64,000 nt of DNA from a virus (lineage: Duplodnaviria > Heunggongvirae > Uroviricota > Caudoviricetes), in IMG/VR virus record IMGVR_UViG_3300027776_000001, positions 23,746 through 87,745 of that record; one strand, written 5' to 3'. Position 1 is the stretch's first letter. Each line of letters opens with the position of its first letter. Positions 15,916-16,610 of the stretch are shown here, piece after piece. Position numbers and translations under genes: made by a program. Below the pieces are notes generated by a model that was given only the letters and a program-made list of their open reading frames with translations, was not told the origin of the DNA and searched no databases.

Positions 15916-15991
15916 TGGTGCTGCCAGAGAGAATCGAACTCCCGACCTAAGCTTTACAAGGGCTTTGCTCTACCAACTGAGCTATAACAGC
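15916..15991 (-). tRNA. tRNA-Thr (anticodon TGT)
   Basis: 76 nt cloverleaf, acceptor GCTGTTA/TGGCAGC, loop CTTGTAA, T-loop TTCGATT, CCA encoded. Confidence 0.75.
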
Positions 15992-15999
15992 ATTATTCT

Positions 16000-16074
16000 G
16001 GCTCTAAAGGTTGGGATCGAACCAACGACCAAGTGATTAACAGTCACCTACTCTACCGACTGAGCTACTTTAGA
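16000..16074 (-). tRNA. tRNA-Asn (anticodon GTT)
   Basis: acceptor TCTAAAG/CTTTAGA, D-arm GCTCAGTCGGTAGAGT, loop CTGTTAA, T-loop TTCGATC. Confidence 0.75.
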
Positions 16075-16082
16075 ATTGTTTT

Positions 16083-16166
16083 TGGCGGAAAATAATCGAA
16101 TCGAACGATCAGCCTCTCGGCTGGCAAGGATTTCAAGTCCTCTTCACTGCCACAGTGCTATCTTCC
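16083..16166 (-). tRNA. tRNA-Ser (anticodon TGA), class II with long variable arm
   Basis: acceptor GGAAGAT/ATTTTCC, loop CTTGAAA, variable stem CAGCC/GGCTG, CCA encoded; position 8 is A. Confidence 0.6.
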
Positions 16167-16174
16167 ATTTGTTC

Positions 16175-16250
16175 TGGTACACCTAGTGGGAATTGAACCC
16201 AACATTGCTGCCTTGAAAGGGCAATGACTTAACCTTTAGTCGATAGGTGC
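16175..16250 (-). tRNA. tRNA-Glu (anticodon TTC)
   Basis: acceptor GCACCTA/TAGGTGT, loop CTTTCAA, T-loop TTCAATT, CCA encoded. Confidence 0.7.
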
Positions 16251-16252
16251 AT

Positions 16253-16339
16253 TGGTGGGGCGTCTAGGTAACGATCCTAGCTGGCTGTGATAGCGCAGGA
16301 TTTACAGTCCTGCCCGCCTCCTTAACGGTCTACCACCCC
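16253..16339 (-). tRNA. tRNA-Tyr (anticodon GTA), class II, atypical T-loop ATCGTTA
   Basis: loop CTGTAAA identical to bacterial tRNA-Tyr; 3-bp D-stem; T-stem CTAGG/CCTAG with swapped 54/58 (A54,T58); CCA encoded. Confidence 0.6.
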
Positions 16340-16346
16340 AATGTTT

Positions 16347-16431
16347 TGGTGGGTCTGGTCAGACTCGAACTGACACTCCTTGCGGAACTAGAACCTAAAT
16401 CTAGCGCGTATACCAATTTCGCCACAAACCC
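16347..16431 (-). tRNA. tRNA-Leu (anticodon TAG), class II
   Basis: acceptor GGGTTTG/CAGACCC, anticodon stem CTAGA/TCTAG, loop TTTAGGT, T-arm GTCAG-TTCGAGT-CTGAC, CCA encoded. Confidence 0.7.
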
Positions 16432-16443
16432 TGAATTCTTTGA

Positions 16444-16518
16444 TGGTCTAGCAGGTCAGACTCGAACTGACGACTTTCTGGCTCCAGACCAGACCGGTTG
16501 CCGCTACCGTACCGCTAG
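16444..16518 (-). tRNA. tRNA-Pro (anticodon TGG) with C at position 33
   Basis: complete cloverleaf (7/4/5/5 stems, CCA encoded); anticodon loop TCTGGAG lacks U33. Confidence 0.55.
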
Positions 16519-16537
16519 ATTGTTCATTCCTTAAACA

Positions 16538-16610
16538 GGGTCTGAGGTGGAGTCGAACCACCGCGCTTCGATTTTCCATCGAAAGCTCTACCTCTGAGCT
16601 TACCAGACCC
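16538..16610 (-). tRNA. tRNA-Phe-like (anticodon GAA) with G at position 33; possibly pseudo-tRNA
   Basis: acceptor GGTCTGG/TCAGACC, T-arm GGTGG-TTCGACT-CCACC, anticodon arm TTCGA-TGGAAAA-TCGAA (Phe-like loop but U33 replaced by G); extra nt before D-stem; no CCA. Confidence 0.4.

Follow-up and report, generated by a model that had tools for sequence, protein, structure and literature searches.

Phage-encoded tRNAs can resist, or replace, tRNAs attacked by VapC, PrrC, AriB, PtuAB and P2-OLD. Described cases are the tRNA-Lys, tRNA-Thr and tRNA-Asn of T5, which counter AriB of PARIS, the tRNA-Tyr of T5 and SP15, which counters PtuAB of retron-Eco7, a phage tRNA-Thr which counters P2-OLD, and mycobacteriophage tRNAs which counter VapC (PMC10264068, PMC11555353, PMC12409363, PMC12445682). 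U54 of the T-loop is regarded as universally conserved, with A54 of the eukaryotic initiator tRNA as the exception (PMC7912444). Here we describe a tRNA locus of an uncultured tailed phage of approximately 87.7 kb, in which the departures of tRNA-Tyr (A54:U58, a 4-nt linker and a G7.A66 mismatch) and tRNA-Pro (C33 and A37) from the usual tRNA pattern appear, from comparisons with related viral genes, to be fixed traits of two old viral lineages and not signs of decay.

The tRNA genes lie upstream of the gene for the large terminase (TerL), within the 64 kb stretch of DNA that was analysed (the window; 64,000 nucleotides). ARAGORN finds exactly eight of them, all on the minus strand between 15916 and 16610 and separated by intergenic spacers of 2–18 nt, and draws a cloverleaf with acceptor, D, anticodon and T arms for each; for the Phe-like, Pro, Tyr and Ser genes the MFE structure is also a cloverleaf. 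An earlier note made from the sequence alone had listed the genes as Thr-TGT, Asn-GTT, Ser-TGA, Glu-TTC, Tyr-GTA, Leu-TAG, Pro-TGG and a Phe-GAA-like gene, behind a promoter of their own (TTGACA-16-TATAGT), and had singled out tRNA-Tyr for a T-loop with positions 54 and 58 swapped, tRNA-Pro for C33, and the Phe-like gene for G33, an extra nucleotide and the lack of an encoded CCA. ARAGORN gives eight genes with the same anticodons and rejects none of the unusual ones, and the promoter (as a consensus match) and all of the named oddities are present in the sequence.

The predicted sigma-70-type promoter (16658..16685, minus strand), identified by consensus match only, consists of TTGACA at 16685–16680, a 16-nt spacer and TATAGT at 16663–16658, with a TG ahead of the −10 box (extended −10), and matches the consensus at 11 of 12 positions; it is one of seven TTGACA-N15-18-TATART sites that the window contains, where chance alone would give 0.11. 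It is followed by a 5′ leader (16611..16657, minus strand), which carries a small hairpin (about 16652–16631) ahead of the first tRNA-like gene and has an MFE of −9.2 kcal/mol (z −0.9) that is not significant on its own. Directly 3′ of the tRNA block, with no terminator between, lies a gene for an HNH endonuclease of 178 aa (15353..15889, minus strand; phrog_953 HNH endonuclease, E 5.8e-30), which has an RBS-like GGGGG before its ATG at 15889 and is probably co-transcribed with the tRNAs. The unit ends in a structured RNA element (15240..15349, minus strand), recognised by its conserved sequence and structure, in which GUGGAGARG, a hairpin, AGCGUGGC, and a GC hairpin with a U run follow one another; it contains a terminator-like site (15277–15250 plus a U tract), is kept in seven related phages, among which hairpin 1 shows compensatory changes, and is followed by the TerL start codon at 15227. 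The layout suggests one polycistronic unit, which would run from the sigma-70 promoter through the eight tRNA-like genes and the HNH gene to the terminator-like hairpin just before TerL.

The phage is distantly related to the FelixO1- or Otagovirus-like phages of Pseudomonas. A megablast search with the tRNA region across 50,697 phage records gave no match, so that there is no close deposited relative, and the identity of TerL homologues falls from 100% straight to 65%; the copies with 100% TerL identity add no evolutionary information, as the tRNA region is identical in them. A TerL-based scan of viral contigs yielded one locus, at 44% identity and without informative tRNAs, and a TerL-based metagenome scan gave no confirmed locus. 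The position between a small ORF and TerL is a variable hot spot for tRNA genes, occupied by differing sets in related phages. Three assemblies (ENA, JGI and Logan) agree at 100% identity over the tRNA region wherever they overlap, and the odd bases are therefore not assembly errors.

A CCA end is encoded by seven of the eight genes, the Phe-like gene being the only one without. The 7-nt anticodon loop has U33 in six genes (Pro has C33 instead, the Phe-like gene G33), and the T-loop has U54-U55-C56-R57-A58 in all but tRNA-Tyr, where it reads A54-U55-C56-G57-U58. The Rfam tRNA model RF00005 places six of the eight genes above its gathering threshold of 29 bits, Pro only under more sensitive filters. 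The five tRNAs which the earlier note had not singled out are all on the minus strand, called by ARAGORN and equipped with CCA. They comprise canonical tRNA-Asn(GUU) (15999..16074; 67.9 bits), tRNA-Thr(UGU) (15916..15991; 65.4 bits), canonical class II tRNA-Leu(UAG) (16347..16431; 55.5 bits), tRNA-Glu(UUC) (16175..16250; 53.1 bits), and class II tRNA-Ser(UGA) (16083..16166), with its cloverleaf MFE fold. By BLAST, tRNA-Glu is approximately 72% identical to the tRNA-Glu of the T5-like Pectobacterium phage DU_PP_V. Three further features of these genes did not appear in the earlier note: G1.U72 in tRNA-Glu; a C31.A39 mismatch in tRNA-Thr, which shortens the anticodon stem and is flagged as non-canonical in the Rfam alignment; and a compact D arm in tRNA-Ser, which can be drawn with a 5-bp stem and 3-nt loop or a 3-bp stem and 7-nt loop. 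The only Rfam match of the Ser gene is to tRNA-Sec (RF01852), at 37.6 bits and below the 47-bit cut-off; an assignment as tRNA-Sec was rejected on that score and because its anticodon, UGA, is that for UCA Ser codons and not the UCA of tRNA-Sec. The encoded CCA, the cloverleaf folds and the amino-acid identity elements make it very likely that the seven CCA-encoding genes are working tRNAs.

tRNA-Tyr(GUA) (16253..16339, minus strand) was identified by ARAGORN and by the family alignment described below, and the Rfam tRNA model gave no match to it at E≤10. It is a class II tRNA with A73 and CCA, and the T-loop AUCGUUA, with A54 and U58, is evident both in the sequence and in the ARAGORN cloverleaf. 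The acceptor and D arms are joined by a 4-nt linker, UAGA, followed by a shifted 4-bp D stem (CCGU/GCGG) with the D loop UAAGGAG, and the acceptor stem has a G7.A66 mismatch; the linker, the shifted D stem and the mismatch are additions to the earlier description.

The same features recur in a family of viral tRNA-Tyr genes, which we define here by an alignment (A1) and a family model (R1). Its motif is matched by 39 viral loci, which give at least 35 distinct sequences, and its traits are the linker UA[G/U]A, the D loop UAAGGAN, the T-loop AUCGUUA and the class II variable arm; all 35 sequences have A73. In the family alignment 95.4% of cells are paired, compared with 34–45% in slid controls, and compensatory changes are seen at 20 of the 24 pairs, including all four D-stem pairs (columns 12–15/23–26). 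The window gene fits this alignment without exception, with the anticodon loop CUGUAAA, the class II arm, A73 and the T arm GG-AUCGUUA-CC of the family, and scores 97.7 bits with R1, of whose training set it is a part. Two Tyr-type genes which are approximately 90% identical differ in carrying AUCGUUA (L004) and UUCGAUC (L083), which constitutes a concerted 54/58 switch. Since the members of this family, and of the Pro family below, were found by loop motifs which left only the stems and other regions free to vary, the invariance of the loops is partly a matter of ascertainment. A search for the Tyr motif in 185,579 species genomes gave two matches, neither of them a cellular tRNA, one lying on a contig of a T4-like phage that had been binned into a MAG and the other not being tRNA-like; the family is apparently restricted to viruses. 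Two further representatives of the family gave no match at all among the 50,697 phage records. None of the 21 members tested was found by the Rfam tRNA model, and ARAGORN failed on 21 of 38. As a separate observation, some of the phage tRNAs for Glu, His and Asp among the loci examined have AUCGAAA-type T-loops.

tRNA-Pro(UGG) (16444..16518, minus strand; ARAGORN, 49.9 bits with Rfam) has the anticodon loop UCUGGAG, in which C33 is accompanied by A37 and G38, together with C1-G72, A73 and CCA. Its anticodon arm, CUGG-UCUGGAG-CCAG, is common to 24 distinct viral tRNA-Pro(UGG) genes (the window gene included), which we define as a second family by alignment A3; every one of the 24 has C1-G72 and A73. 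With the structure held fixed, 95% of cells are paired in the 19 of these 24 that were aligned, with compensatory changes in 15 of 21 pairs; this count replaces the pairing taken from the ARAGORN brackets (100%), which was dropped as circular. In 11 loci the C33 variant stands beside a canonical Pro(UGG) copy with the loop UUUGGGR (U33/G37), and a related phage has at the same site a similar tRNA-Pro with the same anticodon stem but with U33/G37. The homologues inspected in cultured phages (Aeromonas phages 25 and 4_4572, Karamvirus, XacN1 and Limnohabitans phage DC31) all have U33, none C33. Read on the opposite strand, the 15-mer used in the scans spells a Trp anticodon arm, and Trp genes were among the scan matches; for the window gene, an assignment as tRNA-Trp on the other strand was rejected, as the TTCGAGT T-loop, C1-G72/A73 and CCA all lie on the minus strand.

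The earlier note had left open whether the three unusual genes were real phage tRNAs or decoys or pseudo-tRNAs. For Tyr and Pro the comparisons strongly support real phage tRNAs, because the stems covary within large viral families whilst the odd positions stay fixed; on the same evidence both lineages appear to be kept by purifying selection, and the pseudo-tRNA reading, including that of tRNA-Tyr as a pseudogene, is rejected for them. This does not extend to the Phe-like gene.

An unlikely alternative is plain codon supplementation for a host that is assumed to be richer in GC, with the odd positions as neutral or compensated quirks of their lineages, playing no part in conflict. GC3 is 0.41 in this phage, and ACA, CCA and GAA make up 34%, 37% and 62% of their synonymous sets; the tRNA set reads mainly A/U-ending codons, which are much used by this AT-leaning phage, and the anticodons UGU, UGA, UUC, UAG, UGG, GUU, GUA and GAA fit often-used codons. 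The nearest cultured relatives infect GC-rich Pseudomonas, and a 54/58 swap that keeps the tertiary pair could be nearly neutral. However, the fixation of neutral quirks across the 35 Tyr and 24 Pro sequences, which are highly diverged, would be unexpected, as would their confinement to viruses, and a neutral C33 would not be expected to persist beside a canonical Pro(UGG) copy, as it does in 11 contigs.

The retention in many phages of a C33/A37 copy beside a U33/G37 Pro(UGG) suggests a non-redundant role, and could mean that these tRNAs are specialised decoders, in which C33/A37 in Pro (unable to receive m1G37) and A54:U58 in Tyr alter decoding in the service of phage genes and do not serve to evade enzymes, for example through a frameshift-prone reading of CCN codons or through changed EF-Tu or ribosome kinetics. 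tRNA-Pro without m1G37 gives more +1 frameshifting, which counts for this reading. Against it, the C33 copy is the sole tRNA-Pro in the 64 kb window, an awkward position for an error-prone specialist, and we give the proposal very little credence.

The Phe-like gene (16537..16610, minus strand; anticodon GAA; ARAGORN, 45.9 bits with the Rfam tRNA model) is less readily placed. Its anticodon loop is UGGAAAA, with G33; the acceptor-to-D linker has three nucleotides (UAA) instead of two, or, in an alternative drawing, the D stem has 5 bp; the variable loop has 4 nt; and the 3′ end reads GACCC-U-GUUUAA, with U or C as the discriminator and no CCA. An 8-bp acceptor stem (G-1:C73-like) is another possible drawing, which, like the 5-bp D stem and the 4-nt variable loop, goes beyond the earlier description; a tRNA-His assignment on this basis was rejected, as the anticodon is GAA, not GUG, and no CCA follows. 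The best BLAST matches are phage tRNA-Phe genes at 76–81% identity. Three scans of viral contigs found no relatives, and the gene is an orphan in this respect: its exact 15-mer gave 60 chance matches, none in a tRNA, a pattern of the D arm with G33 gave at least 120 matches with no tRNA among the matches listed, and a pattern relaxed at positions 32/33 gave none. It may be a CCA-less tRNA which is finished by the host CCA-adding enzyme, or else a degenerate gene or a tRNA-like leader element; judged from its sequence, several simultaneous anomalies together with the lack of relatives fit decay as well as function.

These anomalies (G33, the extra linker nucleotide, the 4-nt variable loop, a non-A discriminator and the missing CCA), the absence of relatives in the viral scans, and the position of the gene as the first element after the promoter favour a role outside translation for the deviant genes, and for the Phe-like gene above all, as pseudo-tRNAs, as elements of transcript processing or stability, or as decoys that occupy nucleases. 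The Phe-like gene nevertheless retains a cloverleaf fold of high stability (MFE −31.8 kcal/mol, z −3.3), and its anticodon loop presumably differs from that of E. coli tRNA-Phe at position 33 alone. For the other two, CCA and the identity elements (A73, GUA and the class II arm in Tyr; C1-G72, A73 and G35G36 in Pro) are conserved along with the fold, as predicted if selection acts for charging and decoding. In favour of such a role, work on AriB hints that some viral tRNAs may act by means other than the rescue of translation (PMC12409363). Taken as an account of the deviant genes in general, a role outside translation is improbable.

The best-supported reading is that the Tyr and Pro lineages may evade host enzymes directed at tRNA. 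The concerted 54/58 swap would preserve the 54-58 tertiary pair, and both variants may remain active in translation, yet be poor substrates for host enzymes whose recognition depends on the T-loop elbow or on the anticodon loop; candidates are tRNA-cleaving defence nucleases, TrmA and TruB and, for A37, TrmD. The phage would then go on translating whilst host tRNAs are attacked. We infer this step, as we know of no anti-phage nuclease documented to read U33 of tRNA-Pro or T54/A58 of tRNA-Tyr. In model tRNAs, binding to the ribosome is weakened when U33 is substituted, and A54-U58 was reportedly not recovered when positions 54 and 58 were put under selection in vivo (Zagryadskaya et al. 2003), so that full translational competence cannot be assumed.

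Evasion of host nucleases or of modification-dependent cleavage, which the earlier note had raised, fits the phage-tRNA literature and two genes elsewhere in the window, which would reflect the same selective pressure. The first (56485–57411) encodes a T4-type Pnkp, with a full-length match to 1LTQ (E 2.7e-33) and matches to Pfam HAD_PNKP, AAA_33 and phrog_505. The second (53422–54711) encodes an RNA-ligase-like protein, a putative assignment based on a PHROG match (phrog_968 ‘RNA ligase’, E 1.4e-47) and a KVHG motif only; it also has a weak PHA02142 OB-fold match, and searches gave no Pfam match above the cut-off and no PDB sequence match. Taken together, an operon of tRNAs containing selected viral Tyr and Pro lineages, which may evade host tRNA enzymes, is in our judgement the probable explanation of the locus, held with moderate confidence. 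A bolder version, which we put forward only tentatively, is that these genes belong to a hidden, virus-only class of tRNAs with re-engineered invariant positions (the swapped 54-58 pair and re-registered D arm of Tyr, C33/A37 of Pro), competent in translation but unseen by host enzymes that rely on the canonical elbow or anticodon loop, be they defence tRNases or TrmA, TruB and TrmD. They would form a general anti-defence toolkit that annotation has missed, with the Phe-like gene as a decoy or recoding element.

Few features of tRNA are as conserved as the U54-A58 pair and U33, and natural families in which 54-58 is swapped or U33 replaced under selection are ready-made tests of those positions, which could probe the architecture of the elbow, recognition by TrmA and TruB, and the U-turn. 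As the Rfam model found none of 21 members of the Tyr family and ARAGORN missed about half, phage tRNA repertoires are undercounted, which affects conclusions on codon use and anti-defence. Should the variants evade immunity that targets tRNAs, they would be candidates for ‘rescue tRNAs’ with which unknown defence nucleases reading the elbow or U33 could be exposed; a rescue-tRNA screen has already been shown to identify nuclease targets (PMC12445682).

The window genes resemble the nuclease-insensitive tRNAs of other phages in being phage-encoded, in forming a promoter-driven cluster and in having substitutions in the anticodon arm. The isoacceptors Thr-UGU, Asn-GUU, Tyr-GUA and Pro-UGG (the last a minor AriB target) overlap known nuclease targets, and the short anticodon stem of tRNA-Thr (C31.A39) resembles the shorter stem of the OLD-resistant phage tRNA-Thr. 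The documented resistance changes lie at positions 32 and 37–41 and in anticodon stems, whereas none was found at U33 or at the 54-58 pair of the T-loop, and a literature search for A54/U58 or C33 in phage tRNAs found no report.

The viral Tyr family shares with bacterial class II tRNA-Tyr (E. coli tyrT/tyrU) and with the tRNA-Tyr of the T5-like phage DU_PP_V the GUA anticodon, the loop CUGUAAA and the long variable arm, as well as A73, a mostly G1-C72 first pair and an equal distance from position 8 to the anticodon stem. The canonical form, however, has a 2-nt linker, a 3-bp D stem, an 11-nt D loop and the T-loop UUCGAAU, and the viral family a 4-nt linker, a 4-bp D stem, the 7-nt loop UAAGGAN, AUCGUUA and usually a 7.66 mismatch. 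Among deposited phages the same scaffold is found only in Vibrio phage CHOED (76.9 bits with R1) and Bacillus phage G (59.5 bits). The CHOED copy (56549–56634) is unannotated, lies upstream of the terminase and has the T-loop AGCGUUA, with G55 as well; tRNA-Tyr of phage G (gene 92) shares the UAGA-CCG 5′ half but has a canonical UUCGAUU loop. The eukaryotic cytoplasmic initiator tRNA-Met (A54, A60) departs from U54 as the viral Tyr family does, but it keeps A58 and so has a purine-purine A54-A58 pair, whereas the viral tRNA-Tyr, an elongator of class II, swaps both positions.

T4 encodes Pnkp and Rnl1 as a tRNA break-repair pair and has CCA-less tRNA genes. Whilst the ligase-like protein of the window is not recognisably Rnl1, the presence of a T4-type Pnkp together with an RNA-ligase-like protein, and of a CCA-less tRNA gene inside the cluster, resembles the arrangement in T4.

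The tRNA genes form a compact operon, bounded by a consensus promoter and a terminator-like hairpin, which is ordinary when viewed as a phage tRNA cluster. ARAGORN, run on the whole window, reports eight tRNA genes and no more; they occupy 15916–16610 of the minus strand and have the anticodons read in the earlier note (by coordinate Thr-TGT, Asn-GTT, Ser-TGA, Glu-TTC, Tyr-GTA, Leu-TAG, Pro-TGG and Phe-GAA). The promoter proposed there, TTGACA-16-TATAGT at 16685–16658 (−) with an extended −10 TG, was recovered in a consensus scan, which found seven such sites in the window against 0.11 expected. 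Perfect or near-perfect sigma-70 sites lie at 16658–16685, 34556–34583, 36846–36874 and 44953–44981, and within a divergent promoter cluster at 17949–18140; the sites at 16685 and 18015 have TTGACAAAT...TGTGGTATAGT in common.

Reading of the sequence bears out each reported departure from canonical tRNA: the T-loop AUCGUUA (A54/U58) of the Tyr gene (16253–16339 (−)); the anticodon loop UCUGGAG (C33) of the Pro gene (16444–16518 (−)), which also has A37 at a position usually occupied by G37 in tRNA-Pro; and, in the Phe-like gene (16537–16610 (−)), the loop UGGAAAA (G33), an extra nucleotide giving 3 nt between the acceptor and D stems, and a 3′ end (...GACCC-U-GUUUAA) lacking the CCA encoded by the other seven genes. 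The tRNA region is 100% identical across contigs of three assemblies (ENA, JGI, Logan) where these overlap, which rules out assembly noise as the source of the odd bases. In three assemblies of this phage the contig breaks within tRNA-Asn (15999–16074), at about 16022–16058 (fetched loci L313 and L314 end at ~16022; L310 starts at ~16058), likely because of sequence common to other genomes in the samples.

The cloverleaf is the minimum-free-energy fold for all four odd genes (Phe-like, Pro, Tyr and Ser). Six of the eight genes score 45.9–67.9 bits with the Rfam tRNA model, whilst the Tyr gene gives no match to it at E ≤ 10. tRNA-Ser(UGA) (16083–16166 (−)), which has a very compact D arm, matches only the Rfam tRNA-Sec model, at a sub-threshold 37.6 bits; a Ser(UGA)-like gene of a related phage (L330:3747–3840) likewise matches only that model, below threshold (40.8 bits), and ARAGORN misses it.

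The element of greatest interest in the locus is the A54:U58 tRNA-Tyr(GUA) family. When IMG/VR was scanned for the Tyr anticodon arm with GGATCGTTACC after it, 39 loci were found, all tRNA-Tyr-like and in register with the window gene. The 35 distinct sequences all have A73 and a 4-nt linker, U8-A9-[G/U]-A; the D stem (4 bp) is displaced 2 nt 3′ of its usual place, the D loop is of 7 nt (UAAGGAN), the variable arm is of class II, A66 leaves 7-66 unpaired in 22 of the 35, and CCA is encoded in 31. With the structure held fixed, standard pairs occupy 95.4% of cells and both sides have changed in 20 of 24 pairs, including all four pairs of the displaced D stem; the observed values were never reached in 500 shuffles, and pairing falls to 34–45% when the partners are slid. 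Such covariation is the mark of a functional structured RNA under purifying selection rather than of a pseudogene. The earlier note had proposed either real tRNAs or decoys and pseudo-tRNAs; for Tyr the first reading is strongly supported and the pseudo-tRNA reading is rejected. It had also suggested that the 54-58 tertiary pair survives the swap, and this is supported by two Tyr genes (in L004 and L083) that are ~90% identical, with T-loops AUCGUUA and UUCGAUC respectively: the loops differ at both 54 and 58, so the two positions have changed together, and the pair switches in concert.

The Tyr family is widespread, structurally re-registered and largely invisible to standard tools. ARAGORN detects 17 of 38 complete family genes, and the Rfam tRNA model, at its gathering threshold, reports none of the 21 in loci L002–L021, where it reports >100 other tRNAs. 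By its motif, the Tyr family seems confined to viruses: across 185,579 species of bacteria and archaea, with one genome per species, there were only two matches. The contig of the first, 291 kb long, also carries T4-like genes for head closure, a DNA-end protector and homing endonucleases, and is a phage binned into a metagenome-assembled genome; the second is not tRNA-like. Only two related Tyr genes were found in 50,697 deposited phage genomes, where two other family representatives gave no matches. The homologue in Vibrio phage CHOED, unannotated and with the T-loop AGCGUUA, lies upstream of the terminase, as does the window gene; tRNA-Tyr of Bacillus phage G has the same 5′ architecture, but its T-loop is canonical. 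We found no published account of A54:U58 tRNAs in phages, and as far as we could find the family is so far undescribed; a review of T-loops treats U54 as universally conserved, with the eukaryotic initiator tRNA (A54-A58) as a special case (PMC7912444). Other non-canonical T-loops were seen in L002–L040, L105, L188 and L231: AUCGUUA also in some phage Asp, Lys, Ile and His tRNAs, AUCGAAA (A54/A58) in some phage Glu, His and Asp tRNAs, and AGCGUUA (no U55) in Tyr, Lys and Asn genes as well as the CHOED gene.

A second family is formed by tRNA-Pro(UGG) genes with C33 and A37. The 15-mer CTGGTCTGGAGCCAG has 85 matches in IMG/VR, the majority arising by chance or lying in coding sequence; a few belong to tRNA-Trp genes of the opposite strand, the 15-mer being the reverse complement of a Trp anticodon arm. 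ARAGORN identifies 28 of the 85 as tRNA-Pro(UGG) on the correct strand, corresponding to 24 distinct sequences including that of the window. Outside the anticodon arm their median pairwise identity is 68%, with C1-G72 and A73 invariant; in 19 aligned sequences 95% of cells are paired (34–50% in slid controls), with compensatory change in 15 of 21 pairs. In 11 contigs the C33/A37 gene coexists with canonical tRNA-Pro(UGG) (13 such second genes, with the loop UUUGGGR or, in one, UUUGGAG), which argues for a non-redundant role. L318, a related phage locus (TerL 61% identical), has at the same genomic position a tRNA-Pro with the same anticodon stem (UCUGG/CCAGA) and the loop UUUGGGG, and all cultured-phage Pro homologues inspected have U33; relative to the usual phage form, the window gene thus carries the changes U33C and G37A. 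A37 precludes m1G37 formation by TrmD. The Pro family is known from the IMG/VR scan, and the scan of cellular genomes covered the Tyr motif. In loci fetched for the Tyr motif, and so unselected on position 33, 15 of 317 predicted tRNAs lack U33, two of them being the window's own Pro and Phe-like genes; in approximately random viral loci (1.57 Mb), 37 of 39 predicted tRNAs have U33 and 38 of 39 have U54/A58. Tyr and Pro belong to conserved families in which the odd positions are fixed while the stems covary; they lack defining canonical features (U54/A58 and U33, respectively), yet behave as selected tRNAs.

The body of the Phe-like gene is most similar to phage tRNA-Phe genes (76–81% identity), and its anticodon loop differs from that of E. 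coli tRNA-Phe (UUGAAAA) solely at position 33. In the minimum-free-energy fold the extra nucleotide is taken up in a 5-bp D stem; the variable loop has 4 nt, and the acceptor can be drawn with 8 bp (G-1:C73-like), leaving U or C as discriminator. The missing CCA is not disqualifying, since T4 provides a precedent for a CCA-less tRNA gene. Three viral-contig scans found no relatives among the matches listed, and in other copies of the window phage the gene is identical. Given the combined anomalies, non-function is at least as likely as function.

The minus-strand block begins with 304-aa and 111-aa ORFs of unassigned function, followed by the promoter and the tRNAs, an HNH endonuclease gene (15889–15353 (−)), a structured element ending in a terminator-like hairpin (15349–15240 (−)), and the genes for TerL, portal, protease and major capsid protein, in that order. 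The portal shares ~43% identity with the portals of Pseudomonas myoviruses of ~98 kb (e.g. VCM, phiPsa267, REC); the phage's own TerL recurs on ~87.7 kb contigs, the next relatives being only 65% identical. In related phages the site between the small ORF and TerL holds different tRNA sets (Met-Trp-Pro in L318; a cut-off tRNA, then Pro, in L319; Thr-Asn-Trp in L328; Thr in L326; several in L330; none in L311 and L315), and is therefore a variable tRNA hot spot. Codon usage in the window leans towards AT (GC3 0.41), and codons matching the eight tRNAs are common. The L318 island also contains a tRNA-like sequence (9764–9838; stem GGUAUGC...GCAUACC-U-CCA, T-like loop UUUGAGC) called by neither ARAGORN nor Rfam.

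The structured element is a conserved RNA of ~110 nt comprising GUGGAGARG, a hairpin in which 6 of 7 pairs show compensatory change, the motif AGCGUGGC, and a GC-rich hairpin with a U run. It has no Rfam match, recurs just upstream of TerL in L311, L315, L318, L319, L326 and L328 and at L330:3852–3960, and directly precedes the TerL ribosome-binding site in the window phage and in six of its relatives. Attenuator, antitermination leader and late-gene leader are possible roles. Mobile elements cluster in the terminase region: L330 has a group I intron (4709–4953; RF00028, 89.6 bits) directly before its TerL ORF, at a spot equivalent to that of the window's HNH gene, and TerL homologues including P0008, P0011, P0019 and P0026 match PF05204 and PF14528, typical of homing-endonuclease/intein insertions. 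At least four HNH or endonuclease VII-type homing-endonuclease-like genes occur in the 64 kb (15353–15889, 36860–37573, 51350–51988 and 52866–53417), the first and third both matching phrog_953. Auxiliary metabolism genes (37728–41368 (−), 48960–49934 (+) and 19228–20694 (+)) comprise an NAD salvage set (NAPRTase/NAMPT-like and ribose-phosphate pyrophosphokinase), ThyX, PhoH and a ClpP-like protease; relatives also carry PhoH, ClpP and NAD salvage genes.

A conserved 54-58 swap and a conserved C33 would surprise a tRNA specialist, and the two families offer direct handles on the role of those positions and on tRNA-directed immunity. We infer that the variant Tyr and Pro tRNAs would still function in translation whilst escaping those host enzymes whose recognition depends on the canonical elbow or anticodon loop. 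Counting against evasion, no defence nuclease is known to read U33 in tRNA-Pro or, in tRNA-Tyr, the 54-58 pair. Indirect support comes from experiments on phage tRNA resistance, from a stem mismatch in the window tRNA-Thr, and from two candidate repair genes. Phage tRNAs have been found experimentally to replace, or to resist cleavage of, the tRNAs attacked by PrrC, PARIS AriB (Lys, Thr-UGU, Asn-GUU and minor Pro-UGG), retron-Eco7 PtuAB (Tyr) and P2-OLD (Thr-UGU), whilst for VapC resistance is a prediction from sequence (PMC10264068, PMC11555353, PMC12409363, PMC12445682). The repair genes encode a T4-type polynucleotide kinase-phosphatase (56485–57411 (+); full-length match to 1LTQ, E 2.7e-33) and an RNA-ligase-like protein (53422–54711 (+); motif KVHG), which has no Pfam or PDB match and is a putative ligase from its match to the PHROG RNA-ligase family phrog_968 (E 1.4e-47). 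The two resemble the classical tRNA break-repair pair and, by homology, look like an RNA/tRNA repair module of the phage. The window tRNA-Thr(UGU) (15916–15991 (−)) has a C31.A39 mismatch adjoining the loop, which shortens its anticodon stem; phage tRNA-Thr owes its reported resistance to P2-OLD in part to a shortened anticodon stem, the other factor being altered cleavage motifs.
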